Source: Candidatus Thorarchaeota archaeon (GTDB lineage Archaea; Asgardarchaeota; Thorarchaeia; Thorarchaeales; Thorarchaeaceae). Taken from it: a stretch of 64,000 nucleotides of DNA. The notes below the pieces were generated by a model. That model had not been told where the DNA came from and ran no database searches. It saw nothing but the letters and a program-made list of their open reading frames with translations. The translations under genes were made by a program, and so were the position numbers. Position 1 is the first letter of the stretch. Every line of letters starts with the position of its first letter. The DNA lies in NCBI GenBank assembly GCA_011364905.1, contig RDNZ01000001.1, positions 32,001 through 96,000 of the forward strand, given 5' to 3'. Shown piece by piece: positions 20,841 through 45,919 of the stretch.

Positions 20841-23800
20841 TTAGTCCAAGTCAATCCCTAGACTGCTTAAGAGGGCATCGAGGTCCGCCTTTGAGAGACT
20901 CTTTGCTTCTTCTAGAATGACATCAATCTCATCAATAGCCATTCCTTTCTTAATGAGCTTCTGTCGTAGATCCTCCAACTCCTCAGGTCTCTGTTCGAGA
21001 GGTATCTCCTCGGGAGCAGGTTTGCCCTCTGGTGGTTTGGCCAGCACATCAGCTCGACGAGCTTTTTCTTGCTCAATTACCTCCTTTAAGAATCCAGGAC
21101 GCTCACTTGCTCTCATTCTTGCCAAGTCTGCCCTAAAGGCATCCATCTCTAGAGCACCTAAGCCTGTAAGAGCTGCAAGTTCTTCGAGCAATTCATTAAC
21201 TTCAGGTACAGTGGTAACAATTGGATAATCGATAACCTCGTCTGGCGTCTTTACAAGCCTCAACGGGTGTATCTCCTCGTTCACTATCTCCCTCGCCAAT
21301 CCCTGTCTGGTTGGAGCGCTAGGTGGTTTAGGTATTCTCCCTTTGCTAAGAGCACGCATCATTCTGTTCATGTCTCTGATCTGCTTGGGAACACTCCAAA
21401 CCCTTACATAGACTACGATGAACAAAGCTACAAAGACCAGGGCAAATCCTCCCACAATGGTCAAGAATCGCTGAGCTTCCGCTTCTGCGCTTCTATCTGA
21501 CTTAATGTTGAGGACCAATTGTCCAGATGCGTAAGTATCCTTCTGGAAGTTGATTGTTATTGAGAATGTCCCAACTTCATCTACTCTAAAGAAGAGGGTA
21601 TAGATTCCATTTTCATCACGCTTCAAATTCTCCAGGTAGGTTATGTTGCCTTGGCTAAATACGGGTGATATGCTAGCATCAGGAATTCCAACAAGGTGGT
21701 CAAGGTCGTAGTATGTGATCTGAACCTCAATTCTTGCTCCTGGGCGTGTGTAGATAGTGTTGTTGGTAATGGTCAATGTCGTTGCTATGGGTCTAATTGT
21801 CAATTCAAGGTGTTTAGGAGCAATCGAGTATTTCCCTGTTCCAAAGTCTATGTCAAAGCTGTATGATCCATATGGAAGATCACTAGGAATATTCATTGAG
21901 TATGAACCATTTTCTAGGAGCTGGAGTGGAATATTGAACAGCTGAGTTGAGTAAGCAATACCATTTACATCAGTTACGGATGAATTATCTAAACGATTGA
22001 TAACGTTGTACAGAATACTGGATTGTTCATTAATAGGAACAGAGTACAGCTCTGGTCCCAATATATCTGCGGGAGTAACATAGATTTCAATCTTTGCGGT
22101 TACAACTCGAGAGGTGTAGTTGGTAAGATCAAATCGGACCACTAGATCATACAATCCTGGGTTCTCGACATTGATTGGTACATTAACCTCGTAAGATCCG
22201 TTTATATGTTGGATAACAACCAGATCTCCCCCTTCCCAACTGGCTAGCACATTGGCACCATAGATCAACGAGTTATGCTGAGTATCATTGTAGTAGAATA
22301 GAAATGATTTCGTGTCACCCCAATATCCGCTCTGTAGGATTGGGACTGCAGTTGCTTGAGTTGGTATAGGTAAGATAGTGATGACTATAGACTTGTATGC
22401 CGTAGCGTATCCCATTTTGTCTGCCGTCATCCGGAGGTATATGGATTGGCTCGCAAGTGAACTGACATCAATGAAAGCACTGTATGATCCATTTAGTAGA
22501 TCAGTGAAGGTACCACTCAAACTACCCAATGTGTATGATACTGTAGCACCAGAAACAAGTGCTGCATGGAAAGTATCATTGTATACCGCCGTCAAGGACA
22601 ATGAGTCGCCGAAAAAGACGTATCGGATCGTAGTTCCGTCTGACGACGCAATTGTTGTTGGAATTGGGACGATACGTATGTCAATGTTGGTCTCTATGAA
22701 CTGAACATTTGTGGTTACAGCTCTGATTGTCAATGGGAAGACACCAACAGCGAATCCGGTAACATCTACCGATCCAGTGTACCAACCTGGGACACCAGTG
22801 GGCGTAAGGCCAGTTACTGTTCCATTCCATTCCATTGTCACACTCGCACCAGTGACGGGTAAGTCAGTGACTGTGCTTCTCAAGTATAGATCGAAATCGA
22901 TTACATTGTCTATAACTGCGTCATAGGTTGACTGCAAAGGTACTATCTGACCAGGAGCTTTTGAAACCACGAGAGTGAATGATTTCTGTCTGGTTTGGTA
23001 AAACTCCCTTGATGCTGTAATCTGTGGATTGTAAATGCCAAAATCTGCATCTGACGTATCAAGCAGCAAGTAGTAAGAGCCGTCCCCAGCATCAACAAAG
23101 TCGTAGATTGTGCTAGCCCAAAGTAGGGTTGCATTGAATCCCTCTAGATAACTCAAGTAGAAGGGTTCTTGGACTCGGAAACTAATGTTTAGAACTTCTC
23201 CCCAATCTCCATAGTAAGTGGATTGAGTCAAGACAATTTGTACAAGTTGCGCACCAGGTTGTACCGCGACTTGCGCTTCAGCGACTTGATAGAAGTTCTT
23301 TGTGGCTGTCACGGTGATTGAATATTGTTGAGCAACCAGTCCGGTAGTGTTCAAGGTGAGCGAATACAACCCATTGCCATTCTCAACCCATTGATATGCA
23401 TTGCCAGTTATATCGGTCCAATCACACTGTATTACTGCGCCTTCTAGAATCGTTCCGTGGTCCAAATCTTCTAGGGTAAGGGCTATGTTAATTGGAACTC
23501 CAACTGCTGTTGAACCAGCTGGTGGTGCCTCAGCAAGAAGCGATGTATGGACTGCTCTGACCAGTGCGGGAACATTCAATGCACTTCGGTCTGAATAGAA
23601 TGGGGAACCAGTCCATGTTATTGTGATATTGAAGTACACAGTCCCTGGTGAGCTGAAAAGAGTTGTATTCAATGTTATTTGATAGACTCCGTTACCAAGA
23701 CTGCTTACATGATAATCAGGCGAAGACCAACTACTACAGAATAATGTAACAGTTGCACCTTCGATTCCATCACCTGTGAGAAAATCAATGTATTCGAGGT

Positions 23801-26800
23801 TCATTGTGATATTGTCAAAGTATGGGGTTTCCTCCACAAGTGGAAATAGAATCACAGTTGAACGATAAGTCGTTGATGCTTGCGTAGTTGCAGTTCTATC
23901 AGCATAGAAGGGTGAACCTGATGTCCAATCTATACTTAGTTGAATAGCATGACTTGTTACCAAACTAAACGCATCTAGAATGGTTGAATTGAAACTAATC
24001 TCGTAGTATGTTCCGAAATTCACAAGAGTATAGTCACCGGATGCTATCACAGTCTGACTGACTCCATGGCTCAAGGTTATGTCACTCTTGTCAATTGTGA
24101 TAAATGACTTATCTAAGAAGTCTTCAAACACAAACCTGAAGGATACATTCTCGAGGAATGGAGTGCTACCGGGAGTCTTCGTTATTCGAATTTGCGTCGG
24201 TCGTTCTATAATATTAGCAGACAGTGTTCGTCGCGATGATAGATAATAGGGCGCTCCTGAGAAGGATGTTGTTACATTGAGTTGAAATGTACCCGGTGGT
24301 CCGAGAGCCGCGGTGTCAATTTCAACCAGATAATCGCCATTACCATTGTCTGTGATCCAATAGTCCACGCCCAAGGTCAAAGTGAGAGGATCGCTTGTCA
24401 CCATGACTGATGCGCTAGTGATACCGATACCTGAGCTATCATCGGTGAATGTAATGACAAATGTAATGTTTGACTGATATGGTGCATTGTCTGGACTCTC
24501 ATAGCTCAACTGTGTTGACCTTTCTAGAACAGTGAAGGCGAAGTACTCGAAGTTGTCACTTACATAATTAGGTCCAGTGTATGCTATGCTTGCATTGATG
24601 TAGTGAACCCCAGGCGGACCAAACGCTGAGGAGTTCAAGACTACAGTGAAGTGACCATCAGACACTGGTGTTACATGATAGAAAGCAGCACCAATGTTCA
24701 GAGTGAGAGTACCAGTCATTGCAGTCGTTGTTCCTGAGATTATGTCGGTGTAGACGAACTGAATGGTGACATTGTTACCCCATTGCGCCGGAGTAAATGG
24801 TAGGTGCGTCAACTGAGAACTTCTAAGCAAAACCATGACTAAGAATTGCTGGTTTTGTACGTCAGCATAGAATGGTGTGCCACTCCAAGTCAGGTTGAGG
24901 TGAAGTGCGACTTGACCCACGCCACTTAGAGAGGAAGTATTGATGACTACTGTAAACTCATTAGTACCAGGATCAAAGGAGTAGGACCAATCAACTCCAG
25001 GCTCATTGATTTCGATATTCAATGATGCAGAGTCTGCAATCCGTTCTGTTCGGATGGAATCAACGAATGAAAACACAAGACTTGCGTCCTCACCATAGGC
25101 AGTCGGTGAAACGGGTGAATAATCAATGTACGTGGGGCGTTCAAGAACCATAAGGAAAACACTGATTGTTTGATTCTCATATAGCGGGAGGACTCCGGCA
25201 CTCCACAGAAAGCCGATATTCACTTGGAACAATCCTACACCTTCGAGATTTGTGCTGTTAAGATGGAACTCATAGAGTACAGTAGCTCCCTGATTAACGA
25301 TTTCAATGTGGAAATCGTCTCCAGTAACTGGATTCACGCCAATGGGTGTGAAGGAAAGTGACACAGCGCCAGTTACGTTTGAGATGTAGGTTGAGTTGAC
25401 CACATCATAGAACACAGCTGAGAATGTGAAGTTGTCCAGATAGTACGTGGCAACGGGAGCTGTTTCTAAATACAAGTCGGTTTCTGTGCCTATCAATCTA
25501 AACGTAGTGTCAAGAGTTCGAGATTGGAACTTTAGTACTGGTCCCGTCCAACTGATTTGGATAGAGATGTTTTTCCAACCGACAGTTGACCACTGTAAAG
25601 TTGGAACTGTGATATTATAATGACCTGAACCCAGATCGCTCACAGAATAGACCAGTATGGGCAAATCAGAGGGCGTGACTAGAATATGAACATAGCCAGA
25701 GCTATTATCTATACCTAAGTTTAAGTCTGAGTCAAGATAGTTGACTAGAATATATGCATCAACTCCATGCGGAGTCTGAAGTATTGGATCCTCAAGCGTA
25801 AACAGAGTTGAATGTGATCTAACTTGTACACTTATTGAAATCGTATGATTCTGCATCTTTGTACCAGAGAAGCTCACAGAAACTGAGGATGTTCCTAGCG
25901 GAGTGGAATCAGTTGTGAATATAGTGAGTCTATACAGTCCTACCGAAATCTCATTGATACTATAAGTACCGGACCAATCGCAGAGGATTGAATTGTTTAG
26001 ACCAGTGAGGGGTGTATTGTGGTCTGCATCAGTCCACTCGAAAGTCAATGAACCAGACTCGCCAACTGGAATTGCAACAACATTTTGCAGGTAGGTCACC
26101 TTTGTGTATAGTTCCCTGACTTCAACATAGAGCAGATACCGCTGGGGTAGAATATATGGTGCACTTCCTGTGATCTCTACAACATATTCTCCCATTGCAA
26201 CAAAGGTTGTATTGAGCCAGAACTTGTAGCTCCCTGGTGATCCTGCTACAGGCGTAACGCTATAGTAGCTAGACCAATTACAGTCGACAGTTCCCGAAAC
26301 AATTCGTGAACCGAGATAGTCCTCAAATCCTATCGTGAAAGAGCTGTTATATCCAGAGGGGATTGATAGTCCTGGCGAAACGGGTGCTTCAAGCATCAAA
26401 TTTGCATCGAAGTTGAGGTTTATTGTCAATACATCATGAACTGCATCGAAATAAGGATGAGTCCAGTCAAGATTCAGAGTGTACTGTCCTTTCTGAGGCA
26501 AGTCACCAGTATCAAGTGTAGCGATGTACTCACCATTGCCAGCTGTTCCGAAATACTCTGTACCAGTGGTCCAGTTATAGCTCATCTGCCCATCTGAAAC
26601 GGTCACTCCAGGAATATCAGTATCATTGATTTGAATTCTAATGAGAAACAGATCAGGATAGGTCACATTTGTTGTCCAGGTTACAATGGCATCCTTTGGA
26701 TTCAACAAGGTAGATTCGGATGCATGTATAATACTGAATGAACGACGGAAGAATCCAGTCTTGTTCCATGCAGAGCCTGATAGACTGTTGGAGCAAAATG

Positions 26801-28520
26801 CCTGAACAATCCACTCTCCAGCAGATGCATTGGCACCAAAGGTCAAGCTTCCAGAATTCGCATACCCAGTACTGTTTACTGTAGCCATCTCTGAGAACCA
26901 AGCTCCACCTGATGGTGAAAACACGGTTATATTGACTTGGACTCCTGCGAATTGAGCGCCAATGTCTACTGCAAAGAAGGCCGTATCAGATGCCCTGAGG
27001 TTCATCGTCTGAGCTGTAGTGCCGCTTCCAATATTGGTCATCAGCAAATCAGTGATCATGTTTGCGCCTTTACTTTTAACAAGCCAATATCCCCACCGGT
27101 CTGCATAGGGATAGGCAGTAACATTCGCAAACCAATCTGGACCATGTCCCTCATCCCATGAAGAGATGTTCACATTGGTTCGTAAGGGTGAGCCCACATA
27201 GTAAACATCCCGATTTTCAGGCAGAGAGATGTTGTAATAGTATCGATTATCATATCCCTCAGGAATGTCGGCGTAGAACCAAGTCAGGTACTCAACCAGT
27301 GAGGCATTCGTTGCCACAAAATTCTCTCCAAAGGATGTAGGGTCTTGAGTTGTAACCGTGGTTGATTCGCTTCTAGCATAGAGATTCGTTTCAACTGTAA
27401 ATTCAACCCATATGTTTCTGTTCGGGACTGGTGTTGATGGTGTGGGTGTCCAAGAGAAGGTCACATCAACAGGACTTGTGGTCCAAACTGACGTAGGATT
27501 CTGTGTGACATTACCAAGTCCAGGTACAGACGAGCCGCCGCTGATGAAATCATTAACATCGAGCCCGTTCATTTGCATGTTGAGATCGCTTGGGTCGGCC
27601 TTGGTCTTTAGATATAGCTCGAAGTTGTCAACACGTGCGTAGGGATTAAGGTCGGGATTATAGTTCACAGTCTGCTGGCTGTAAAGACCTACTGTAACAA
27701 GTACGCCATCTGACAGGTCGAAAATAGATAGGTCTGGGAGAGTAATCAATCCACTATCGTACCAAGTTTGGGCTTGATCAATATCAGGGAATGACTTTTG
27801 CCAAACACGCTGAGTGTAATCGTTCGTTTCAATTGAAACAAAGATAGCTACAAATCCATCTGCGCCCCAGTCAGAGTCAACCCAATAGTCCAGTCTAAAG
27901 CCTGCCCAAACAACGTCACCACGATTCACAGAGAAGGTTTGCTGAGCCCAGGCTCTCTCCCCTTCAGATGGGTCTCCACCGCCTGCGATCTCAAACTGAA
28001 CACAGTCATCTCCAGCACCATGTCCGTTGGCTAACCAGCTCGCCGATGGAGCTGCTCCTCCACCAATGCTCACCTGATTGAGAGACCAGCTAGATGGGCT
28101 GTTTTCCATATCGGGATCTTGGACCCATGTTCGATTCTCTGTAAGGTCAGATATTCCGGTAAATAGCTCATAGCCTTCCCAGTCAGTACCCATAGGAATC
28201 GAAACGGACTCACTATTGGTACTACTATTGCTTGAGAAGTATCTCATCTGATTGCTGGTGAAGGTATCGCTTCTATTTCCATACTCTTGTGCTGGCAATC
28301 CAGATGATGTACCAGACCACGTGGTCCAGCCTTGTTCAGCATTCAAATAGCCCGTTTCAGTAGGATTGGACATCGGAGAAGAGATTGTATCTTCCGGATT
28401 GGCCATACCATTGGTCGTTTTGCCGCTTTGTCCTTGTTGCAAACCAATATTCGCTGTAGCACTGAACACCATCAAGAATGTGATGAGTATCAATAGGGAT
28501 AGTCTATATCTTGTGTTCAT
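20841..28520 (-). CDS. Giant (2559 aa) single-pass cell-surface protein B: head domain + Ig-like repeats + cytoplasmic helical tail
   Basis: Signal peptide, ~100-aa repeats (G.Y.I.L.T..L, WTG.P.Y..R, F.Y.D), dense N-x-S/T sequons, one TM, ~180-aa charged tail. Confidence 0.88.
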   Translation of the reverse strand: MNTRYRLSLLILITFLMVFSATANIGLQQGQSGKTTNGMANPEDTISSPMSNPTETGYLNAEQGWTTWSGTSSGLPAQEYGNRSDTFTSNQMRYFSSNSSTNSESVSIPMGTDWEGYELFTGISDLTENRTWVQDPDMENSPSSWSLNQVSIGGGAAPSASWLANGHGAGDDCVQFEIAGGGDPSEGERAWAQQTFSVNRGDVVWAGFRLDYWVDSDWGADGFVAIFVSIETNDYTQRVWQKSFPDIDQAQTWYDSGLITLPDLSIFDLSDGVLVTVGLYSQQTVNYNPDLNPYARVDNFELYLKTKADPSDLNMQMNGLDVNDFISGGSSVPGLGNVTQNPTSVWTTSPVDVTFSWTPTPSTPVPNRNIWVEFTVETNLYARSESTTVTTQDPTSFGENFVATNASLVEYLTWFYADIPEGYDNRYYYNISLPENRDVYYVGSPLRTNVNISSWDEGHGPDWFANVTAYPYADRWGYWLVKSKGANMITDLLMTNIGSGTTAQTMNLRASDTAFFAVDIGAQFAGVQVNITVFSPSGGAWFSEMATVNSTGYANSGSLTFGANASAGEWIVQAFCSNSLSGSAWNKTGFFRRSFSIIHASESTLLNPKDAIVTWTTNVTYPDLFLIRIQINDTDIPGVTVSDGQMSYNWTTGTEYFGTAGNGEYIATLDTGDLPQKGQYTLNLDWTHPYFDAVHDVLTINLNFDANLMLEAPVSPGLSIPSGYNSSFTIGFEDYLGSRIVSGTVDCNWSSYYSVTPVAGSPGSYKFWLNTTFVAMGEYVVEITGSAPYILPQRYLLYVEVRELYTKVTYLQNVVAIPVGESGSLTFEWTDADHNTPLTGLNNSILCDWSGTYSINEISVGLYRLTIFTTDSTPLGTSSVSVSFSGTKMQNHTISISVQVRSHSTLFTLEDPILQTPHGVDAYILVNYLDSDLNLGIDNSSGYVHILVTPSDLPILVYSVSDLGSGHYNITVPTLQWSTVGWKNISIQISWTGPVLKFQSRTLDTTFRLIGTETDLYLETAPVATYYLDNFTFSAVFYDVVNSTYISNVTGAVSLSFTPIGVNPVTGDDFHIEIVNQGATVLYEFHLNSTNLEGVGLFQVNIGFLWSAGVLPLYENQTISVFLMVLERPTYIDYSPVSPTAYGEDASLVFSFVDSIRTERIADSASLNIEINEPGVDWSYSFDPGTNEFTVVINTSSLSGVGQVALHLNLTWSGTPFYADVQNQQFLVMVLLRSSQLTHLPFTPAQWGNNVTIQFVYTDIISGTTTAMTGTLTLNIGAAFYHVTPVSDGHFTVVLNSSAFGPPGVHYINASIAYTGPNYVSDNFEYFAFTVLERSTQLSYESPDNAPYQSNITFVITFTDDSSGIGITSASVMVTSDPLTLTLGVDYWITDNGNGDYLVEIDTAALGPPGTFQLNVTTSFSGAPYYLSSRRTLSANIIERPTQIRITKTPGSTPFLENVSFRFVFEDFLDKSFITIDKSDITLSHGVSQTVIASGDYTLVNFGTYYEISFNSTILDAFSLVTSHAIQLSIDWTSGSPFYADRTATTQASTTYRSTVILFPLVEETPYFDNITMNLEYIDFLTGDGIEGATVTLFCSSWSSPDYHVSSLGNGVYQITLNTTLFSSPGTVYFNITITWTGSPFYSDRSALNVPALVRAVHTSLLAEAPPAGSTAVGVPINIALTLEDLDHGTILEGAVIQCDWTDITGNAYQWVENGNGLYSLTLNTTGLVAQQYSITVTATKNFYQVAEAQVAVQPGAQLVQIVLTQSTYYGDWGEVLNISFRVQEPFYLSYLEGFNATLLWASTIYDFVDAGDGSYYLLLDTSDADFGIYNPQITASREFYQTRQKSFTLVVSKAPGQIVPLQSTYDAVIDNVIDFDLYLRSTVTDLPVTGASVTMEWNGTVTGLTPTGVPGWYTGSVDVTGFAVGVFPLTIRAVTTNVQFIETNIDIRIVPIPTTIASSDGTTIRYVFFGDSLSLTAVYNDTFHAALVSGATVSYTLGSLSGTFTDLLNGSYSAFIDVSSLASQSIYLRMTADKMGYATAYKSIVITILPIPTQATAVPILQSGYWGDTKSFLFYYNDTQHNSLIYGANVLASWEGGDLVVIQHINGSYEVNVPINVENPGLYDLVVRFDLTNYTSRVVTAKIEIYVTPADILGPELYSVPINEQSSILYNVINRLDNSSVTDVNGIAYSTQLFNIPLQLLENGSYSMNIPSDLPYGSYSFDIDFGTGKYSIAPKHLELTIRPIATTLTITNNTIYTRPGARIEVQITYYDLDHLVGIPDASISPVFSQGNITYLENLKRDENGIYTLFFRVDEVGTFSITINFQKDTYASGQLVLNIKSDRSAEAEAQRFLTIVGGFALVFVALFIVVYVRVWSVPKQIRDMNRMMRALSKGRIPKPPSAPTRQGLAREIVNEEIHPLRLVKTPDEVIDYPIVTTVPEVNELLEELAALTGLGALEMDAFRADLARMRASERPGFLKEVIEQEKARRADVLAKPPEGKPAPEEIPLEQRPEELEDLRQKLIKKGMAIDEIDVILEEAKSLSKADLDALLSSLGIDLD

Positions 28521-31500
28521 TCTTCCATCCCTCCAATCTCTTTTAGCAATGCATCTATTTCAGCCTTAGACAGGTTTCGGGCTTGTTCTATCATGAGATC
28601 AGCCTCTGTTTCTTCAATGCCCATTTTCAATAGACGCTCTTTCAAGTGAAGTAGTTCATCTTCTGAAAGACGCTCCTCAGCAACTTCAGCAGGGACTCCT
28701 TCCTCAGCAACCATCTCAGCTTCCGCAAGTTCTCTCGCCCGACGTGCACGCTCCTGTTTGAGAACCTCATTGATGAATCCAGCTCTCTCACTTGGCCGCA
28801 TCTTGTCAAGGTCTTGACGTAGAGTATCAATGTCATCAGGAGTCAAACCGACAACAGTGGCAAGCTGATCTAGAAGCAGTTCGACATCCATTACTGTGAC
28901 ATCAACTGTTGACAGCGCCACATCTTCCTCTGTCTTCTGGATTCTAATTGGCTTCAAATCATCATTCATCATTGCGAGAAGCATTTGGCGTCTCTGAGGA
29001 ACATCAGCAGGTTTCGGTATTTTGCCTTTTGACAGAGACCCTATCATTCTCCTAATGATTCGTAGCAGCTTTGGCACAGATAACACTCTGAAGTATAGTG
29101 CGCCTAAGGCAGCGAATAATACAAGAAGCATTGTGCCATTTCGGAACCATGCGACAAGTGCCTCTTGCTCAGGTGAGAAGCGAGTATAAACGTCAAGATT
29201 GACCTCTCCATCTGCATAGTTAACCCTGCTTAGAATGATTTTCAAGCTGTAGAGGGCTAACACGGGAGCACGAAATGCGATTGCATATGTTCCATTGTGG
29301 TAGTCGATATCAAGTTCTTCCACATGAACCAAATTTGCTGTTTGCACATTGTTGCTTGATCGGATTGTAATATCAGCATCCGTGATTGGTAAAGAGTGAT
29401 CACTGTCGAGATATGTGACATTTACGAAGAAGACACGACCGACATAGATAAATTCGGGCAAAGCAGAAGATACTAGCTCCGTCGCAATCCTGCGTATTTT
29501 CAAGGAAACATCAATCTCTCCTCTCGAGTAGTTTCCTCGAGATATGAAAATCCTGATTGTATAATTCTCGTCGCGATATTGTAGTGTTTGACCTAGATTC
29601 GCCTCCGTTGGACCGAAGACGTATGATCCGTTATTCAAATTGGTTAATTGAACGGCACCAAACTCCCAATATGCAGTAGCAAGACCGTCAGCTATCCAGT
29701 TTGCATGAAGGTCATCCCAATAACCAAATGTCATCGAGTAATCATCACCTACAGCAAACTCTGCTTCCGTTTTTCCGGTTAGCACGGTCCGAATTGGATT
29801 GACAAGCAGTTTCACCAATCCTGAAGCAAACCGAAAGTTCTCCTTTCGGAAGGAGATGGCTATGTTATGGGGAACAGTTCCTGCCTGAACAAGAGAAGTG
29901 TTAACCGTAAGTGAGTATGTACCATTGCCATAATCGAATAGCGAACCCTTGAACTGCTCTAATGTGTAGTTAGTAATCGCACCCGGTATTCCCTCGTCAG
30001 CATGGATATCATGGAAGACAAGAACAAATGTGACTTCCTCCCCATAATATCCACTAAGAGTGGCGTCAGTCACAATAACAATATCAGTATCGACAACTTC
30101 AACATTCAAAGTGAATTGGATTGATGAAGGCCTATAACCGTCCTTGTCACTCGAGATTATAACAGTCCATTCTTGGACACTAAGATCTGTGGTGTCAATA
30201 AGAGCACTGTAATACCCAGGCGTACCTAATTCGGTTAAATTCCCGACAAGCGGCCCTACACCATATGAGAGACGGGCACCGAGAACAGGTGTGTTTAGAT
30301 CTGTATTATTCAGATAAACAGTGATATTGGCAATATCACGGAAGTTCACAGTAACGACAAAATCTGAAACAGCTACAAGACTAGTGGAAAGCTCAGTGAT
30401 TTCAATTGTAAGTTGCATTGATACACTCTTGTAGTTGTCCGAGCTAGCTTGAATGAGAATCTGATGGGTACCTACAGAGGCTCCTGTAACAATAAAGTCC
30501 ACAACGTATTTTCCATCCGATGCAGACCACGGAATCTGTCCAGAACCTCCAACCCAACTATAGGTGACCTGACCATTCGTAATTGGTGAGCTGTCAGAGT
30601 ATATGAGATAATCCACTTGGAGATGGACACTCAATCCGTTGACGGTCGAAAGAGGATTGATCGATCCGGCAATTTTTGATGCAATCTTGCCAATTCGAAT
30701 TTGGAAATCTCTTTGCCTGCTCTCATAATTGAGGAGGACGGATCTCACTGTGACTGTGTGTTCACCAGCGACTATCTGCCAAGATTGCACGGTAACATTG
30801 TATATACCAGATCCAATATGAGTCATGTCGACTGTTATAGTTGAAATAGTCAGATTGACATATGCGCCAACAATGGGAGCTCCAGTTCTAGCATCTGTAA
30901 CATTGGCTTGGAAATTAATAGAGTCGCCCCAGGAGGGACTAGTAGGATTAAAGTCTAGCTCAATCTGAACTGGTACAGCTGAAAGGAGAATATCCGCGAG
31001 AATTGTATGATTTTGGTGCAAATACTTTGAGGCACTTACTGAGAATGAATACAAACCAGCATCCATTCCAGATGTTTGAATCGTCATTTCATAGACGCCG
31101 GTGTCAATTTCATGAATTGTTGCTATTGTTGGGTAAGTAGCGTTCCAATCACTCAAAACCGTCGCGCCTGGAATACCAACTCCAAATTCAATTGCAGTGT
31201 AGGTGATGTTGGCGTGGATTACATCTCCCAAGTAGTATGTTACACCTTGAGGCAGGGTGAAGCTAAGAGTCGTTGATACAGAATTAACAACCGCTGAAAA
31301 GCTTAGATTTGTTACATTTGTGTAATATGGAGAACCATACCAAGTCATATTGGCTGTGAAGAAATACCTGCCCAAACCAGACAATGTTGTGGTGTCTACC
31401 AGAATCTGATAAGTGCCATCACCATTGTCAATGATCCAATGCGTGAAACTTGTGGAATTTGCTGACTCTAATGAAACATCTGCCCCGGGGATTCCATTCC

Positions 31501-34500
31501 CGGTGAGATAGTCCTTGAAGTCAAGCAAGGCGCTGATATTGAAAAAGTAATACGCTGGTGGAGTTGATAGGACTGAGGCTTGAGTATACCGAGTGGAAAT
31601 TGTGACTTGAGTGGTTGTCGTGGAATTCTCATAATATGGCGTCATGTCGCCCCAGTGGAATTGAATAGTAATTGGGTACGCATCTTCTAGCTCTGAGGAT
31701 AGAAGTGTAGAATTGAAGGATATCAAATAGAATCCATCTTGTCCAGTGAGTGTATACTGAGAGTCGAGGATTACTGTGCCTCCTCCATGTGTGATGGTAA
31801 GAACAGATTTTGTCAGAGATATTCTAGTGCTATTCACATCATCCATAACGCTAATCTGGAATTCTACATTGCTCAGGAACGGAGTCGTTAAAGGCGAACG
31901 GGTCACCGACAGCGTTGCGTATCGTCTCACCACATCTATTTGGACATTCGTTATCCTACTCTGATAATATGGTGCGCCTGTTTTGCTTGCTGAGATTGCA
32001 ATGGTATATTCACCAAAGTTTCCTAAGGCAAGTGTTGAAATCCTGATGCGATAGTCGCCACCTGTTAGTGAATCAACCCAGTAGTTGACTCCGAGCTGAA
32101 GTGTAGCGTTGGAACAGGTCGCAGTAATGGTTGCGCCATCTATACCCGCGAGTGTGCTATCGTCAAAATAGGACACAAACACTTCAGCTTCCTCCAAGTA
32201 GACTGCAAGAGAGGGGACTTCGCTAGTTAGTTGAGTCCTTCTTTGGATAAGCGTTAGATAGAAGAAGTCAGTGGCATCAAAACAGAAGTTTGTGCCTGTG
32301 TAAGACATCGATGCATTGACCGTATAGGTTGCCAGTGATGGAAATGCGCTTGTATCAAGAGTCACTGTGAAAGTGCCATCTCCATTGTTTACAACGTTAT
32401 AGTATCCTAGTAGAGACGCATCTAGTGTCAAGCTTCCAGTGTTCAACAAGGACTGATCGTCAAGGTCTCTGTAAGTAAAGACGATAACCAAATCATTACC
32501 ATATTGAATTGAGGTGTATGGTCCATGTTCAAGATTCGTGTATCTACTCCGCACGGTCAGTGATATCGGAATGCTGGTTCGGTTCTGGTAGAATGGGGTA
32601 CCAGTCCACATCACATCGAGATGAAGTGTGAAGGTTCCAACGTTGCTCCACCATGTTGTATCAAGCTCCAATACATACTCTTGACTACCCGGTAGATAGA
32701 TAGCGCTAAGAACAAGTCCGGTCTCCTGAACCTGATAATTCAATTGAGGATCATCGGAAATCGGCAGGCCTGTTAGAACATCGATGTAGGAGAAAGTCAG
32801 ATTGACATTATCTCCATATGGAGTGGTTGGGAGAGGTTCCCATAGAATGCTTGTTTGCCTGTATCTGGTATTCACTGCTACGGTCAGTGATCTGTTTTCG
32901 TAGAGCGGAAGCTGTCCAGATGTCCAATTTGCAGAGATTCGAATCTCACATGTAATGATACCGCTAAGATAATTTGTATCGAAGGTTATTTGATATTCTC
33001 CATTACCTAGTTCGGAGATCACCATCAGGTCTTGGGTTAATGTCTGACCTGGTGTAAGGACTTCAATATAGAAGTGCACATTCAAGGGATAGTCTCCAGT
33101 ACTATTGGTTATCCCAGTACTGTTACTAATGTCCCAATATACAACCGAGAAGGTGACATTTTCCCCATAAGGAGTGGCAACTGGATTCGTTCCTATGTAC
33201 AAATCAGATGGACTTCCAGCGATTCTTGCGCTTACCTGCAGCACTTTGTTATCGTGCGCTGGTTGTGGACCAGTCCAATTTGCATAGAGTGTTATATCCT
33301 TCCTGCCAATCGACCCCCATTGATCAGCTCTTATTCTAACTATGTACTGACCAGCTATTGAACCATTTACAACTGTATACTCAAGTGACGGTACACCCAC
33401 GGCTTCAGCATAAATCAAGACATTGCTGCTGACAATTCCTTGTGATGTTGTAATGTCATAATACATCACGTAAATCGTAATTTGACCAGTGTAAGGCGTT
33501 GGTTCGATGGGATTATCTAAGGAGAAAGAAGTCAAATGAGTGATTATATCAATACCAATGCTGAAGGTATGGTTCTGGTAGGCAAAGCGGTTAACATCGA
33601 AGACCACGGAGTAGTCCTGAATAGGATCAGATTCAGCTGAGTAAAACGTTATGCTGTATTCACCTGGTGCACTGGCTGCCACAATGTAACTTGACCAGTT
33701 GCATGAGATGGAACTCTCTGCACCCGATATCGGAAGATCGTGATCAGTATCCCAGTATGTCAGTGTAATGGTTTCTTCATAACCAACTGGGAGAGATATG
33801 CCGCTCTGGGAAACTGAAACTGAAGTGAAGATCTGTCGCACTTCAACAAATAGAAGAACCTGAGAAGTAGTGTAGTAATTCTGCTCTGCTGTGACGACAA
33901 CCGCATAGGTGCCCAAGTTGGAATTTCCTGTAGTAATCGTAAGAGTGTAGTTACCAGGTGCTCCAGCTACTGGATTGACGGTGTAGGATGAATCTGTCCA
34001 ATTACATGTTAGAACTGCACCACCAATACCCGCGTCTTCCGAGTCTGCGTAGAAGAGTTCGAGAACTGCATTGTCTCCTCGGGGCACTTGTACCCCAGGA
34101 GCACTACTGGATTGTAATGTTGTTTCTTCAACGACATTTATCACAAAATACGTTTGGAGTGAATCGTAGTACTGCTTACTCCATGAAATGCCTATCACAT
34201 ATCGACCAGGGAGTCCCAAATCTGCTGTGTTGACAACAACACTGTACTCACCAGTACCCATATCATTCAGGATGCGTGTTCCAGTAGTCCAGTTGTATGT
34301 TGCAGAACCTCCTGGAAGGAGAAGACCATTATTGGAGTCATTTACACCAATCTGAAGAAGCATATCTTGACCATAGGTGAGATTTCGTTCCCAGGAAGTA
34401 ACAGATTGCCTGGGATAGGCAATATACATGTCAGATCCATGTTCAATTGTAAACGACCGTGAATACAAACCGATGTTCTCAACGGGACTACCTGAAACAG

Positions 34501-36211
34501 AATCATTCACGAATGCTTGTACCGACCATTGCCCTACTTCAGCTGTGAAGGCATCAAGATTCAAGTCGGTCGTTTCAGCAATCCCTGAAGACACCGTTGC
34601 TGCCACTGTGTCCCATAGGTTGCCCATTGTGTCATAGACGTTGAATGTAACAGTCGCACCGTTGTAAACGGTATCAAGATAGGCTTGGAAGCGAACATTG
34701 TCATTAGCCCGATACGTGTTTGTAGTGACCCAACTGGCACCACTTGACATTCTCAAGTCTTGAATTATGTTCGCTGAATGCCCTGTTATTTTCCAGAATC
34801 CATTCTGATAGGTCCCGACAACTCCATCATAAACTGAAATGTTCAAGCTTGTTGCAGTGGTGGACCAATATGGGAAATTGACGGATGGGAATCGAGGTTC
34901 TGATACAGTATCAATAACCAGAGTATCAGATTTACTTGCATTGAAGTAGAATAACTGGGAATAACCGTTTGGGACAGCAACGTAATAATATGTAATCCAG
35001 TTTACTTGGCTGGCATTACTGGTCGTGAAGTGAGTGCCCAGACTCTGAACATCAGCTTCATAGAGTGAGGACTGGTCAACTTTTCTTGCATATACCGTCA
35101 TGTCGACAGAAAAAGTGACACGAATATCATCATTAGGGTTGGGATTTACTGGAGTCGGAGTCCAGCTGAATGTTGCATTCACTGCACTTCCACTCCATGG
35201 GATAGCTGCAGATTCCTGAACTGTGCCTAAACTCCATGTAGCGCCATTGGACACGGGAATGCCATTCATTTCCAAGTTTACTTGACTTGGTTGCACTCGA
35301 GTCTTTATGAAGATTCTAACATTGTCCATCCTCACCTCTGGGTAGAGCTGAGGATTGCTTCCGAATGATCTTGTAGTCCTCATTCCAATTTGCAGAATGA
35401 AGTTGGATGATGTGATGAGTGAAGGGTCAGCCTCGATTAAGCCTGTGGAGTACCAAGTTGTTTGTGCAAGAACATCACTGAACTGCATGTCCCACAGATG
35501 GTTTGATACATTATCATTGTGGCCAATTTGAGCGTATAGCTCCCAAAAACCAATGGGCAGACCGCCCCAATTATCATCAACCCAGTAATCAAGTGAAACG
35601 CCAACCCATGTGACTTCACCACGATTGGTATTGATTGTTTGCTCCGCATACTGTCTATCGCCAAGGTCATGGCGGTAGTAGCCTCCATCCAACACACCGT
35701 CCATCTGAAAGCTGACATACCCACCAGTTATTGTAGAAGACATAGGATTTGTGTGAGTTGGCAAATCATCATAGCCAGTTGTCCAGTCCGCTGCTGAACC
35801 AAAACCGGGGTTGGTAAGATAGGTTCGATTCTCCTGAAGGTCACTCACACTGATGGATGTGTCAGTACCTTCCCAAAGAGGACCGAGAGGAACAGAAACA
35901 GTCTGAGTTGTGGTAGTATTTGTAGGATAATAAGCAAGGTCCAGGTTTGAGTGGTGATCCGTCCTTTGCCCATATTCCGACACTACCATAGGAGACCCTT
36001 CGCCTGAAACTGTTGTTGGGACCTCAGAAAGAGAATAAGAATTCAGGACCTCATCTGGCCCAACTTCAACGGTCTGACCATTGCCTAGATCTACCTGTTT
36101 TGCTCCAGGCGCAGAGGAAGTTGGGGTGGCATTATGAGTCATAGGGGCTCCAAGACTCACAAGTAGAGACGCCATCACGAGAAATAGAAACAGGGTCCTT
36201 TTGACTTTCAT
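28517..36211 (-). CDS. Giant (2564 aa) single-pass cell-surface protein A, paralogue of 20841-28520
   Basis: Co-linear with its neighbour from head to tail; ATGA stop/start overlap at 28517-28520. Confidence 0.88.
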   Translation of the reverse strand: MKVKRTLFLFLVMASLLVSLGAPMTHNATPTSSAPGAKQVDLGNGQTVEVGPDEVLNSYSLSEVPTTVSGEGSPMVVSEYGQRTDHHSNLDLAYYPTNTTTTQTVSVPLGPLWEGTDTSISVSDLQENRTYLTNPGFGSAADWTTGYDDLPTHTNPMSSTITGGYVSFQMDGVLDGGYYRHDLGDRQYAEQTINTNRGEVTWVGVSLDYWVDDNWGGLPIGFWELYAQIGHNDNVSNHLWDMQFSDVLAQTTWYSTGLIEADPSLITSSNFILQIGMRTTRSFGSNPQLYPEVRMDNVRIFIKTRVQPSQVNLEMNGIPVSNGATWSLGTVQESAAIPWSGSAVNATFSWTPTPVNPNPNDDIRVTFSVDMTVYARKVDQSSLYEADVQSLGTHFTTSNASQVNWITYYYVAVPNGYSQLFYFNASKSDTLVIDTVSEPRFPSVNFPYWSTTATSLNISVYDGVVGTYQNGFWKITGHSANIIQDLRMSSGASWVTTNTYRANDNVRFQAYLDTVYNGATVTFNVYDTMGNLWDTVAATVSSGIAETTDLNLDAFTAEVGQWSVQAFVNDSVSGSPVENIGLYSRSFTIEHGSDMYIAYPRQSVTSWERNLTYGQDMLLQIGVNDSNNGLLLPGGSATYNWTTGTRILNDMGTGEYSVVVNTADLGLPGRYVIGISWSKQYYDSLQTYFVINVVEETTLQSSSAPGVQVPRGDNAVLELFYADSEDAGIGGAVLTCNWTDSSYTVNPVAGAPGNYTLTITTGNSNLGTYAVVVTAEQNYYTTSQVLLFVEVRQIFTSVSVSQSGISLPVGYEETITLTYWDTDHDLPISGAESSISCNWSSYIVAASAPGEYSITFYSAESDPIQDYSVVFDVNRFAYQNHTFSIGIDIITHLTSFSLDNPIEPTPYTGQITIYVMYYDITTSQGIVSSNVLIYAEAVGVPSLEYTVVNGSIAGQYIVRIRADQWGSIGRKDITLYANWTGPQPAHDNKVLQVSARIAGSPSDLYIGTNPVATPYGENVTFSVVYWDISNSTGITNSTGDYPLNVHFYIEVLTPGQTLTQDLMVISELGNGEYQITFDTNYLSGIITCEIRISANWTSGQLPLYENRSLTVAVNTRYRQTSILWEPLPTTPYGDNVNLTFSYIDVLTGLPISDDPQLNYQVQETGLVLSAIYLPGSQEYVLELDTTWWSNVGTFTLHLDVMWTGTPFYQNRTSIPISLTVRSRYTNLEHGPYTSIQYGNDLVIVFTYRDLDDQSLLNTGSLTLDASLLGYYNVVNNGDGTFTVTLDTSAFPSLATYTVNASMSYTGTNFCFDATDFFYLTLIQRRTQLTSEVPSLAVYLEEAEVFVSYFDDSTLAGIDGATITATCSNATLQLGVNYWVDSLTGGDYRIRISTLALGNFGEYTIAISASKTGAPYYQSRITNVQIDVVRRYATLSVTRSPLTTPFLSNVEFQISVMDDVNSTRISLTKSVLTITHGGGTVILDSQYTLTGQDGFYLISFNSTLLSSELEDAYPITIQFHWGDMTPYYENSTTTTQVTISTRYTQASVLSTPPAYYFFNISALLDFKDYLTGNGIPGADVSLESANSTSFTHWIIDNGDGTYQILVDTTTLSGLGRYFFTANMTWYGSPYYTNVTNLSFSAVVNSVSTTLSFTLPQGVTYYLGDVIHANITYTAIEFGVGIPGATVLSDWNATYPTIATIHEIDTGVYEMTIQTSGMDAGLYSFSVSASKYLHQNHTILADILLSAVPVQIELDFNPTSPSWGDSINFQANVTDARTGAPIVGAYVNLTISTITVDMTHIGSGIYNVTVQSWQIVAGEHTVTVRSVLLNYESRQRDFQIRIGKIASKIAGSINPLSTVNGLSVHLQVDYLIYSDSSPITNGQVTYSWVGGSGQIPWSASDGKYVVDFIVTGASVGTHQILIQASSDNYKSVSMQLTIEITELSTSLVAVSDFVVTVNFRDIANITVYLNNTDLNTPVLGARLSYGVGPLVGNLTELGTPGYYSALIDTTDLSVQEWTVIISSDKDGYRPSSIQFTLNVEVVDTDIVIVTDATLSGYYGEEVTFVLVFHDIHADEGIPGAITNYTLEQFKGSLFDYGNGTYSLTVNTSLVQAGTVPHNIAISFRKENFRFASGLVKLLVNPIRTVLTGKTEAEFAVGDDYSMTFGYWDDLHANWIADGLATAYWEFGAVQLTNLNNGSYVFGPTEANLGQTLQYRDENYTIRIFISRGNYSRGEIDVSLKIRRIATELVSSALPEFIYVGRVFFVNVTYLDSDHSLPITDADITIRSSNNVQTANLVHVEELDIDYHNGTYAIAFRAPVLALYSLKIILSRVNYADGEVNLDVYTRFSPEQEALVAWFRNGTMLLVLFAALGALYFRVLSVPKLLRIIRRMIGSLSKGKIPKPADVPQRRQMLLAMMNDDLKPIRIQKTEEDVALSTVDVTVMDVELLLDQLATVVGLTPDDIDTLRQDLDKMRPSERAGFINEVLKQERARRARELAEAEMVAEEGVPAEVAEERLSEDELLHLKERLLKMGIEETEADLMIEQARNLSKAEIDALLKEIGGMEE

Positions 36212-36449: not shown

Positions 36450-38630
36450 TTATTCTCTCTTTCGAATTACAATGACACCGACTATTACAATAACGGCTGC
36501 AATACTTCCTGCAACGATTATCGGTGTCAGAATATACGGAGGTGTATTTGTGGTAGTGCTAGTTGGTGTTGATGAAGCCGCACTAAGATGTGTCAAAACT
36601 CCTCCTTCTGCTCTATTCATCCCCCAATCCCAAGCAACCACCCATATAGTAAGATTTGAGGTGTGCTCCAAGAAGGGAACTGACACTGACCAATTATATC
36701 CGTTATAAGCCATTGGAAAGCTACGAACAACACCATCATCTACCTGAACATAGAGTGTGACATTCTCCAATCCTGCAAGATTTTCGCTAATCATCGCCCA
36801 GTAGGTGAAAGGGCCAGTCCAAAAGTCGCTTGGATTAGTACCTCGACCATATATCGACGGAGGTATGTCATCAATTGACGAAAACATCATTCTTCGAGTC
36901 CAATCTCGAGCTTTTACCAAAGCACTGTATGCTGAATGCCAGTCCATTTCATTGTAGGAATTTCTTGCAGATTCAAATGAAGCAAGAGCAGCAGATTCCG
37001 CGGCATAGGTTACGCCTCTCTCATCGGATCGAAGATTGGATTGCTCCTCAAGAAAGTTTGACCATAGAAGAGCTTCCATCTGGTCCAAATAGGTCCCCTG
37101 AACCCAGTTCTTCTCAAAAGTGGAGGTACCGTTGTGTTCAGCAAAGTATCCCATAGGTCCGTAATAGAAGTCACTTGAATAGTGCTCATGTTGCCAAGAG
37201 TGCGCAAATCCGATTGCATGCATGGTCTCATGAAGTTGAGTGGCTGATATTCCATCCTTGGGAGTCACACCATCCGGGCGATAATAACGTTCCCAAGATT
37301 TCCAGATGACTGTCTGTCCTCCTCCACCCAGTCCGGTGTACGCTCTTCCATAGACATGCATTTCCATTTGCTTCTTTATGAAGACAACTCCAAACACATT
37401 GATGTTGTCGTCATTAACCACATATGCGGGTCTCATTCCACTGTAGATAGCATTAAACATGGACCCACCATCAACAATTGTTGTTCCATCTAAGTTATCT
37501 GCGGCGTATGTCCAGAACAGGCTGTTCCAAGAAGGTTCTTCATCGATGTCTAGATATTGGACATCAACCTCCCATTGAATGAAGGGATAGAGTTCCTCAA
37601 GATGCGCCTTTTGCATCTCAGCGTTGGTCACCCATTCGAGGCTATTGACAGAGGTCCCATCAGCTACATCCATGCAAAACACCAGCACCTTCAGTCTACC
37701 AACATCAACATACTTTGCAGGCTGATGCTGATATGGGAAAAGTAGTTGGCTGATAGGGTCCCAGATGCACTCTCTCAAGTAAACATTGAGTGCATCTACA
37801 TCTGCAGGTATGTCTAAGTTGAGAGATCCCACTTTGTCCTCTAAATCTTGAGTCCAGAAATCGTAAGACGTATTGATTTCTTCGCTCCACCAAACCTTGC
37901 ACCATTTCAAGTACCACTGATGAGCACTAGGGTCCACTACATACAGATTATAGCGTCCACCGAAGAACGGATAGTCCATCGTGACATTCGGATTCAGAGC
38001 GTTGTCCCACTCCAATCTAAACCAGTCTTGATTCTGTCCCGTATCAGGATCAAGGGGGTGGTAGTTGTACCAATGTTCCAGACTGTGATCCGCGCTGTCA
38101 AACTCCGAGAAATTAACAAGATAAAGAGTGTACCCAAGATCAGGCGGACTCGTGTATGGATTCTCTTCTAGCCAATCCTCCACTGCATAGCCATCAATGG
38201 CACGACCTGCTCGAGGATAGAATATTCGTTGTGGTTCGTCGAGGTTGTCCTTCTGATATAGTAGTGCGCTCTCATCAAGGCCTGTCCCTGTTTCGCTTCC
38301 ATTTATGGAATTGTCAAGCATGACTTGGCGAAGTTCGTCGTTGTATGCAGCATCTGCATAGACGATTTGATACTCGATATTATAGGTGATTTGAGCTGCT
38401 TCTGTAGAAAAGTTCCTGATTGTTGGTAAATCCTGTAATAGTAACGGTTCATCAATTAGAGAAGGATCATAACCCACTACGATGATATTAGCTGTCCAGT
38501 TTCTCTCAATTGGTTGAGGCCCCTGACTAAGAGTAGCTTGCTTTACTGGCTGTCTGTGATTATCTTGCACACCAAAAGGAGTGGCAATCACAAGCACTAA
38601 AGCAATACCTAGGACAAGAGCACGACGCAT
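36450..38630 (-). CDS. Membrane-anchored metzincin-like zinc metalloprotease
   Basis: Signal peptide (MRRALVLG), HETMHAIGFAH = HExxHxxGxxH, downstream PMGY Met-turn, Ig-like domain, S/T linker, C-terminal TM. Confidence 0.8.
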   Translation of the reverse strand: MRRALVLGIALVLVIATPFGVQDNHRQPVKQATLSQGPQPIERNWTANIIVVGYDPSLIDEPLLLQDLPTIRNFSTEAAQITYNIEYQIVYADAAYNDELRQVMLDNSINGSETGTGLDESALLYQKDNLDEPQRIFYPRAGRAIDGYAVEDWLEENPYTSPPDLGYTLYLVNFSEFDSADHSLEHWYNYHPLDPDTGQNQDWFRLEWDNALNPNVTMDYPFFGGRYNLYVVDPSAHQWYLKWCKVWWSEEINTSYDFWTQDLEDKVGSLNLDIPADVDALNVYLRECIWDPISQLLFPYQHQPAKYVDVGRLKVLVFCMDVADGTSVNSLEWVTNAEMQKAHLEELYPFIQWEVDVQYLDIDEEPSWNSLFWTYAADNLDGTTIVDGGSMFNAIYSGMRPAYVVNDDNINVFGVVFIKKQMEMHVYGRAYTGLGGGGQTVIWKSWERYYRPDGVTPKDGISATQLHETMHAIGFAHSWQHEHYSSDFYYGPMGYFAEHNGTSTFEKNWVQGTYLDQMEALLWSNFLEEQSNLRSDERGVTYAAESAALASFESARNSYNEMDWHSAYSALVKARDWTRRMMFSSIDDIPPSIYGRGTNPSDFWTGPFTYWAMISENLAGLENVTLYVQVDDGVVRSFPMAYNGYNWSVSVPFLEHTSNLTIWVVAWDWGMNRAEGGVLTHLSAASSTPTSTTTNTPPYILTPIIVAGSIAAVIVIVGVIVIRKRE

Positions 38631-38754
38631 AGTGTTCCCTGCCTTCTTCACCATATTAACAAACTGGTTCATGTAACCGCAACCAAACCACATTTGGCGC
38701 TTAATGAATATATACGCACATATTATATTAGGAAATATGATACTATTATCCTCG

Positions 38755-45200: not shown

Positions 45201-45752
45201 TAAGAAATACCATCGACCAAGTACCCAGTCATTCTTATTCCCCACGATGGTTGTGTCCCCGCCCCAGTCTAATGTAAGGCGATTGTCAACAGACCAACGA
45301 GTTTCAAAGTCATAATCCTGCCCCCAGAACCGTCCAGTGGCTAGGGAACCATCCCATTTTATCCAAAGAGAAATAGTTCCTTGCGGTGATCCGAAGTCGG
45401 TTTGGCCACTAACACCGACTAAGAAGTAACCTCCTGAACAATCGGCAGAGTACCTGTTACCTTGTGAGCCTACAGGAGAGAATGCTTCAGAGCTTGGTTG
45501 AGGTGCCGTGTCAGTACGAGCGATAGTGTATGGTTGAATCCCAGCAGCTGAACCGAAATGTTCGATAGGAACAGGGTTGAGTATACCAGTTCTTGGTTCC
45601 GGGCTTTCAGAAAGGCCATGATATATTCCCTTGGAAAGTCGTATAGGATCTGAGAAGTTGGTTCTTGAAGTCGTTGTGCTTGGAGCTGCTAACGGTGCCC
45701 ACCCTAACATGCTACAGAGAAATAGTATCATGACTAGATGGGTCCTTTTCAA
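42252..45752 (-). CDS. Single-pass receptor-like protein: head domain with LamG insert, Ig-like domain, TM, cytoplasmic longin/roadblock-like domain
   Basis: LamG (GTISLWIK, WYFLAITWD, GHVDDFRYY); one TM; tail LIGLLVIHRAIGLPVYS..ILSSLITAISQF. TTG start at 45752 after GGAGG. Confidence 0.75.
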   Translation of the reverse strand: MKRTHLVMILFLCSMLGWAPLAAPSTTTSRTNFSDPIRLSKGIYHGLSESPEPRTGILNPVPIEHFGSAAGIQPYTIARTDTAPQPSSEAFSPVGSQGNRYSADCSGGYFLVGVSGQTDFGSPQGTISLWIKWDGSLATGRFWGQDYDFETRWSVDNRLTLDWGGDTTIVGNKNDWVLGRWYFLAITWDDTSNQIAIYWGDEDTQPLEDAFTTSWVGSVVGFLSENDLMNSAARPDTMVDGHVDDFRYYTVERPLEDIRSDYLETLAGNEPGLSHYYKFEGSLSDSSGGADLVPVGAVSFSYDVCAGDDSWSAEQVEVDIRDLNCLYALNGTFETGNPGANIDWTGNGAFYADGWLAQREILYTPGRQRTSYVDTGSKYLSIENEGYEVVGVGYRHYDGTRIYWYQMVNNSQGEEEFEFSMDYLYQRGPIGLNYSDIFEFGFEILNGTSMLWNWTIDPTNMTQRGVWFSTGPLEVEIPEAPPQFEIRVVLKVDTPSSYIQIDENDADLDGDSANGQFLTFLVDDISLTALNAPSPQQVDLTVSCSPLGTLPVYGTVSQGEILLNYSFWEKASIPFTFSSNTTVSFEFSSKVSIMTRFSYSMSSMNLEDDGVSYVIEMGEHAEFSLYTYIQSYPEAADKGIIAHIPSDWNDPQVLNPLGQDVTPSVSVEDSKLTIASGLANSAGWWTIILHGPNYVNKLTTQVQNKSDLTWADESIFHNEDRIRCLASLGATNDSLGNATNVEVSWYLPTSDLWASEVLHNFNDSTVVTQGDVFGPVNSTVGEWIVGAFWHNGTEVGYGKAEFSLLHKFTVIAQTPIREIKSGDEFTLAISLYDQDNGNSILSDAQVTGNWTSGIVQFSPNYARNWWEADFNSTGFGSGEYLVVIEVAMPYFESNSVNVTIRIPGTESLYVVTLRAGFIGAFIVVISVVAIAFSRRFYMTTMTRRNLELLALEGRIDDAKNLIGLLVIHRAIGLPVYSNILKGAFQESILSSLITAISQFRSEFSIDEPMWTAIPITEVVTAVQTESLICAIITVEPASSRQKVQLETFSREVGGLYDHQDDAIRQMVRSPTLSDTFDSIFVSYFDGRLMKRYVGVKRNLPKDLSPVSSALDSMDIHHGVSVDAIIKATSVLGYTERRAHQMVLEAVDGDFLIAAETKLPSPLPPEE

Positions 45753-45919
45753 CCACTGGCCTCCGATGAGAAGCTGGTAACTAGGCCGGAGTTTATGCCA
45801 CAAAACGCAACTTCCCAACTTTGCTGTCTTCTCATACGTAGTATTATCTATTTCAGGAAATGGTGTTCGAACTGGAACGCCAACAGGTGCATGAATTTAC
45901 CAGTCATAGGGTGATGTTT

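Follow-up and report, generated by a model that had tools for sequence, protein, structure and literature searches.

What a giant archaeal surface protein carries on the inner side of the membrane, and why, is the question raised by two adjacent genes of a Candidatus Thorarchaeota archaeon. No relatives of eukaryotes closer than the Asgard archaea are known, and, to our knowledge, little has been established about how these cells construct their surface or how it communicates with the cytoplasm. The window analysed here is a 64,000-nucleotide stretch of contig C15 in a 3.08-Mb Asgard metagenome-assembled genome that is 81% complete. It encodes two giant open reading frames (ORFs) on the minus strand: P0001 (2559 aa, 20841-28520) and, upstream of it, P0002 (2564 aa, 28517-36211). 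An original prediction, made from the letters of the window, held that the C-terminal tails of both proteins are more conserved than their stalks, bind a conserved partner in the cytoplasm, and end in a module resembling a UBA or Pex14 N-terminal domain. The tail is described below as a lineage-specific protein domain family under strong purifying selection, which we tentatively read as a docking domain common to the giant surface proteins of Thorarchaeia.

The stop codon of P0002 overlaps the start codon of P0001 in an ATGA at 28517-28520, and the two proteins are collinear tandem paralogues that are 32% identical over 2554 positions. Each begins with a signal peptide and continues into a huge, N-x-S/T sequon-rich ectodomain and one transmembrane (TM) helix, followed by a tail of 184 aa in P0001 and 187 aa in P0002. 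The first tail had been located correctly: positions 20841-21410 (minus strand) are the final 189 codons and the stop codon of P0001. The second lies in frame at 28520-29089, and does not extend to 29090 as had been proposed. The homologous 187 aa of P0002 are encoded at 28520-29080 (minus strand), with a core at 28733-28903 and a C-terminal module (C-module) at 28520-28672. The P0002 tail is 40% identical to that of P0001 and 57-85% identical to its own orthologues.

The orientation of the tail was deduced from three features present in both giants. Hydropathy in P0001 peaks at 2.88 over aa 2349-2379, with an acidic flank before the peak (AEAEAQ) and a basic flank after it; from this peak and the flank charges the single TM helix was placed at aa 2352-2375 (21396-21467, minus strand). 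Tail residues 1-30, immediately behind the helix, have a net charge of +7. The ectodomains contain 53 and 52 sequons, twice the expected number, and the tails contain 0 and 1; the tails are composed of 15% lysine plus arginine and 19-21% aspartate plus glutamate. Because of the signal peptide, the sequon distribution and the basic, positive-inside flank behind the TM helix, both giants are predicted to be type-I membrane proteins with a cytoplasmic C-terminal tail, and not to expose the tail outside the cell. A tail of this size is more than a membrane anchor needs, since the neighbouring surface protein P0048 (747 aa; 36450-38693, minus strand) manages with the four residues RKRE after its C-terminal TM helix. 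This agrees with the earlier remark that a plain anchor requires only a few basic residues.

To compare the conservation of tail and ectodomain, 20 full-length P0001 orthologues from related genomes were aligned. Mean pairwise identity per column was 0.626 in the tail, 0.508 in the ectodomain and 0.411 in the TM helix. None of the 210 ectodomain windows of 184 aa reached the value of the tail, the best being 0.567, so the claim that the tail is more conserved than the stalk holds among orthologues. Between the two paralogues the difference is modest (35-46% identity in the tail versus 20-42% per 100 ectodomain columns). The motifs on which the claim had been based are all present in the pairwise alignment: SVPK..R...RM...LSKG.IPKP, DL..MR.SER.GF..EV..QE.ARRA, LSKA..DALL, LLKMGIEETEA and LIKKGMAIDEID. 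Conservation is uneven along the tail. Among same-genus orthologues with ectodomain identities of 46-49%, identity rises to 82-87% in the core (aa 2438-2492) and to 80-100% in the C-module (aa 2515-2559), while residues 31-62 and the linker of the tail are no better kept than the ectodomain stalk.

Nei-Gojobori estimates were made on the same-genus orthologues. The proportion of synonymous differences (pS) was saturated in all regions (0.72-0.89 in these orthologues, 0.72-0.91 overall). The proportion of nonsynonymous differences (pN), at 0.35-0.37 in the ectodomain, fell to 0.11-0.22 in the whole tail and to 0.04-0.13 in the core and C-module, a three- to eight-fold drop. Low pN together with saturated pS indicates that selection acts on the protein and not on the DNA or RNA; the tail is under strong purifying selection at the protein level. 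On the opposite strand of the tail-coding sequence there is a 103-aa ORF (20917-21228, plus strand), most probably spurious given that selection on the tail protein explains the local conservation.

The distribution of the tail was determined by a scan of 400 genomes of the Asgard phylum. It is present in 80 of the 85 genomes of the family to which the window belongs (f1) and in the single genome of the sister family f2, with 2-8 matches per genome that almost always end reading frames of 2200-6560 aa. Four carriers are encoded in the source genome, of 2559, 2564, 3983 and 5894 aa. The latter two, on contig C87 (loci L003 and L004), form a second giant pair with an ATGA overlap (L003 1165-1168), and the 3983-aa protein has a 406-aa tail ending in four tandem C-modules. 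The four-fold C-module is also found in relatives of 3371-4257 aa. Pairs of P0001-type (class A) and P0002-type (class B) tails, about 7.7 kb apart on the same strand, occur in about 30 genomes, sister family f2 included. The arrangement is not always a simple pair: in two related genomes (G370:C22 and G102:C15) four tail-bearing giants stand in a row on one strand.

Weak, more remote matches, spanning the full tail, were found in 13 of the 19 genomes of family f14 (E 1e-4 to 7e-7). These carriers are large frames built to the same plan: the TM helix is followed by IPW.VRKMRKM....KG..P, this by LE.LEGLG...LFE.MK.IP.KDR.WF.EDLK.QMA, and the end is formed by helical modules. When 1.84 billion representative proteins were searched with a profile, only 139 matched, nearly all of them C-terminally in large proteins or their fragments; one distant match is labelled Odinarchaeota/Asgardarchaeia, and for two bacterial repeat proteins the match is confined to the helix-G-helix hairpin of the C-module. 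Searches of Pfam and NCBIfam with both giants, both tails, 31 tails and 30 C-modules returned nothing significant, and no description of the tail was found in a literature search. The tail is a lineage-specific protein domain family that has not been described before.

The tail of P0001 was modelled with AlphaFold2 (AF2) using an alignment of 31 tails (A1). The model is all-helical, with eight helices and a mean predicted local distance difference test (pLDDT) value of 78.5; low confidence is limited to residues 120-135, so that the tail is predicted to be folded and not disordered. The helices comprise residues 4-17, 30-45, 64-77, 81-92 and 99-119 (block pLDDT 76-94), then 137-149, 154-164 and 169-178. 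Twenty-one residues are invariant in the 31 tails, which represent all paralogue classes: S1, P3, R7, G19, P22, R30, L69, L70, L73, L79, M94, S97, E98, F102, E105, V106, Q109, E110, G151, A164 and L167.

Five segments can be distinguished in this model, all encoded on the minus strand. The juxtamembrane basic segment (residues 1-30; 21306-21395; pLDDT 88-94) consists of an S-x-P cap, helix 4-17, the turn KG-x-IP-x-P and R30. Its helix (residues 4-18) is strongly amphipathic, with a hydrophobic moment of 0.79 and a charge of +4, and its motif S-x-P-x3-R...[KR]-G-x2-P is the most deeply conserved feature of the tail. Helix 30-45 and the extended segment 46-60 follow (21216-21305), with identity to orthologues of 25-66%, below or near the ectodomain value. 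The core is a predicted three-helix unit (residues 61-119; 21039-21215; helices 64-77, 81-92 and 99-119; pLDDT 79-91) with same-genus identity of 82-93%, and it holds the invariant stripe M..SE(R).(G)F..EV..QE..R. An acidic, proline-rich and probably flexible linker (residues 120-133; 20997-21038; pLDDT 50-58), which varies from about 15 to about 100 residues across paralogue classes, leads to the C-module.

The C-module (51 aa; 20844-20996) is a predicted three-helix unit with a net charge of -7 that is 80-100% identical in same-genus orthologues. Modelled alone, the last 51 residues gave a pLDDT of 82.9 and a predicted template modelling score (pTM) of 0.57, with helices at 4-16, 21-33 and 36-46. 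The loop between its first two helices contains a nearly invariant glycine, within K-K-G-M in class A, K-M-G-I in class B and S-R-G-V/I in class C, and has no conserved aromatic residue. Alignment of the core (A3) with the C-module (A2) by hhalign gave a probability of 64% over 21 columns in a shifted register, which is suggestive at most of the two being duplicates of one unit.

Taken together, these features point, at slightly less than an even chance in our estimate, to a lineage-specific cytoplasmic docking domain with which all giant Ig-repeat type-I surface proteins of Thorarchaeia end on the inner side of the membrane. The basic amphipathic helix would hold the N-terminal part of the tail flat against the inner leaflet, and the conserved polar face of the core, with one or more flexibly tethered acidic C-modules, would present binding surfaces to a single cytoplasmic partner or assembly common to the giants. 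However much their ectodomains differ, the giants could in this way be connected to one intracellular structure, in the manner of eukaryotic adhesion-receptor tails. The presence of a common tail on ectodomains of very different length and sequence argues for a common intracellular function. The polar residues S97, E98, E105, Q109, E110 and R113, which lie on one helix and are kept in all classes, support the docking of a partner because folding of a helical bundle alone would not need them. Variation in C-module number from one to four on a flexible linker is likewise typical of interaction modules.

Several points weigh against a docking role. No partner of the tail was identified, and no conserved small cytoplasmic gene is evident beside the pair within the window, so that of the earlier proposal of a conserved partner there stands a tail that, being folded, cytoplasmic, selected and common to very different giants, fits partner binding, and from which we infer the function. 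The pTM of the whole-tail model is 0.38, and AF2 confidence in the helices is no proof of a compact domain. Searches of Pfam, PDB sequences, Foldseek, VIA and ESM Atlas revealed no homologue among known adaptor-binding domains. Assembly of tails with each other, or a role in biogenesis or turnover, would also account for strong conservation.

The first of these alternatives, which we consider unlikely, is that the tail is a pairing or clustering domain: tails would bind each other, A with B in a coupled pair or homotypically, to form heterodimers or patches with no separate partner. The ATGA-overlapping giant pairs in the window and on contig C87, and the recurrence of the A/B pair in about 30 genomes into the sister family, are what this would predict. 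The residues that are invariant within one class only (AFR and PGF in class A versus TLR and AGF in class B) would fit complementary surfaces, and the opposite charges of the juxtamembrane part (+7) and the C-module (-7) would allow the two to bind in trans. However, the tail also occurs on other giant classes and in the rows of four giants, and so is not specific to pairs; ectodomains or TM helices could equally bring about pairing; and positive structural evidence is lacking. Co-folding the tails of P0001 and P0002 gave a score of 0.00 in a run that had no controls, and so bears neither for nor against binding.

Three ORFs without a TM helix that contain parts of the tail were found, all on metagenome contigs of 0.9-2.2 kb, and none of them in the 81% complete genome of the window. 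P0157 (185 aa) and P0162 (191 aa) were each seen once, on contigs of 1.6 and 0.9 kb; in both, the three-helix core follows an N-terminal half of no known kind. These N-terminal halves were not found in IMG/VR, nor was that of P0157 found in the 400 Asgard genomes. In P0140 (341 aa, on a 2.1-kb contig) the helical region behind a STAND-like NTPase is joined to a tail-like domain (tail residues 8-147, E 2e-17). Relatives of the P0140-type NTPase are encoded in 12 of the 85 family genomes (loci L126, L129 and L132 among them), with Walker A and B motifs and with HEAT repeats in place of the tail domain; their matches to nSTAND_NTPase5 and NACHT are below threshold. In five of these genomes the NTPase gene shares a contig with a giant, 4-18 kb away. 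Neither 86 family genomes nor the metagenome scan yielded the fusion itself a second time, and P0140 may be a chimeric assembly; if real, it would be a lead pointing to homotypic use of the tail domain.

Rather less probable is a signal for biogenesis, sorting or turnover, read by the apparatus for inserting, localising, retaining or degrading very large type-I proteins, or mainly a lipid-binding element at the membrane interface. The juxtamembrane S-x-P...KG..P motif would suit such a role, being kept even in family f14; its helix in P0001 is strongly amphipathic and basic, and all carriers are exceptionally large secreted proteins. Against it, a few basic residues suffice for other anchored surface proteins of the genome, and the 80-100% conserved distal C-module and its four-copy amplification would be left unexplained.

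The remaining alternative concerns the identity of the C-module, which had been likened by eye to the UBA and Pex14 N-terminal domains, and would make it a binder of ubiquitin or of WxxxF/Y-type peptides. Comparison of the models with known structures, proposed at the outset as a check, gave no significant match to a known fold: the best Foldseek E values against the PDB were 0.74 for the whole tail and 2.9 for the C-module. VIA-align against 48,161 chains gave best Z scores of 6.9 (core) and 5.5 (C-module), generic helical matches that are within the noise of the tool for helical models, and ESM Atlas gave no usable match for the tail. PDB sequence profiles were also without significant matches (best E 0.008 for the tail alignment A1 and 0.009 for the C-module alignment A2). 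Below threshold, the family searches listed PSK_trans_fac/VapB, RecX_HTH1, Pex14_N, Drt5 and others; stray names in public records such as 'VapB antitoxin' and 'MazG' result from matches of this kind.

Resemblance to UBA domains found no support in any Pfam, PDB-sequence or fold list. No UBA family matched the first member of the set at E <= 1 or appeared among the top 25 families for the 31 tails or 30 C-modules, and no UBA chain was among the 31 PDB sequences with E <= 10. None was listed for the C-module by Foldseek or the wide VIA search, where absence from the lists does not exclude the fold, the C-module model being three-helical. The LLKMGIEETEA segment had been compared with the UBA loop; its M-G-I is typical of the P0002 class only, K-K-G-M taking its place in the P0001 class, and the hydrophobic-Gly-aromatic loop of UBA type (MGF or MGY) is not conserved across the classes of C-module.

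Pex14_N (PF04695) matched 7 of the 30 C-modules (best E 0.0048) and 3 of the 31 whole tails (best E 0.097), none significantly. Pex14 chains in the PDB scored E 0.36-1.1, and each match covered about 20 residues of one helix-G-helix hairpin. With the C-module model, Foldseek listed 7qrc_B (E 4.0; TM-score 0.37/0.32; root-mean-square deviation, rmsd, 8.9 Å) and 2w84 (E 9.7; TM-score 0.38/0.35; rmsd 9.3 Å), poor superpositions that are both absent from the VIA top 50 for the C-module. The commonest sub-threshold Pfam match was RecX_HTH1 (PF21982), in 17 of the 30 C-modules (best E 3.5e-4). RecX repeats (PF21982, PF02631) are likewise tandem three-helix units of about 45-50 aa with the motif LRxxLxxKG(h)xxE(h). 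Membership of this family was rejected: no C-module exceeded the cut-off, hhalign of A2 with E. coli RecX gave a probability of 3.3%, and RecX was absent from the fold lists. PF21982 had 0 matches in this genome at E <= 0.01, versus a match in 9 of 14 control genomes. Since Pex14_N and RecX_HTH1 share the same hairpin, L..LR..L..KG(h)...E(h), and RecX also fails, the hairpin is a common helix-G-helix motif and not evidence of membership.

The same kind of hairpin, L..L...GL...EI..I...AK, to which the C-module profile responds, is present in 4-8 copies in two apparently bacterial (FliK-like) proteins: P0177 (1093 aa, FliK-like, with a Flg_hook domain) and P0165 (457 aa, a Zn-ribbon and repeats). 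P0165 reaches the RecX_HTH1 cut-off and matches the tail profile. Two further likenesses noted by eye, of C-module helix 1 to MIM1 and of the juxtamembrane helix-KG-IPKP to WH2, were dropped because key positions misfit or no tool supported them.

That the C-module is a UBA-like or Pex14-N-like domain is therefore very improbable: the predicted three-helix unit of about 45 aa with a glycine-containing loop after helix 1, the weak Pex14_N scores drawn by its L..L...G(h)...E(h) hairpin and the M-G-I loop of class B are set against scores below the family cut-offs, an rmsd of about 9 Å, the absence of any UBA match, a hairpin that scores better with RecX_HTH1, and a loop motif that is not kept across tail classes.

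The docking reading has a more specific version, in which the tail is an archaeal counterpart of an adhesion-receptor tail, a dedicated coupling domain through which giant surface fibres would connect or signal to an intracellular system such as a lokiactin-based cytoskeleton, the endosomal sorting complexes required for transport (ESCRT) or a STAND-type NTPase; we regard this as a long shot. The P0140 ORF, if real, would be a lead to homotypic use of the domain by an adaptor. In integrin alpha and beta subunits and classical cadherins, too, a very large ectodomain built of repeats is joined by one TM helix to a tail that is the better conserved of the two. Further shared features are a membrane-proximal basic or hydrophobic segment, the occurrence of genes or subunits in pairs, and one tail type on different ectodomains. 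The likeness is an analogy only: there is no sequence or fold homology, and the roughly 185 aa of the Thorarchaeota tail are predicted to fold into a helical domain whose modules can be repeated. GFFKR, NPxY and catenin-binding motifs are absent from the tail alignment, and no such Pfam or PDB match is among the matches listed. Bacterial giant Ig-repeat adhesins of the LapA and invasin/intimin types also have long stalks of Ig-like repeats and are among the largest proteins of their genomes. In contrast to the giants described here, they rely on outer-membrane anchoring or N-terminal plugs and have no conserved cytoplasmic C-terminal domain of this kind.

The giant pair is flanked by a class-I (Trp/Tyr-type) tRNA synthetase gene and by the gene for P0048, which lies directly upstream, has no Pfam match and carries an HExxH-like motif (HETMHAIGFAH). 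Elsewhere in the window, a 1188-aa LamG surface or receptor-like protein is encoded at 42252-45818 (minus strand). Its C-terminal region of about 200 aa (42252-42851) is also long and is unlike the tail of the giants; by eye it contains a Roadblock/LC7-like stretch and a helix-LGY-helix end, and Pfam gives only Laminin_G_3.

A folded, selected tail of about 185 aa is a defined and expressible handle with which to fish for the intracellular structure attached to it. If the tails only pair with each other, this would explain why the giants are inherited as coupled pairs. If the docking reading holds and the partner is cytoskeletal, membrane-remodelling or signalling machinery, Asgard archaea would gain, in this tail, their first described link from receptor to cytoplasm. 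Should it prove a counterpart of adhesion-receptor tails, outside-in coupling through type-I receptors would have arisen independently in close relatives of eukaryotes.

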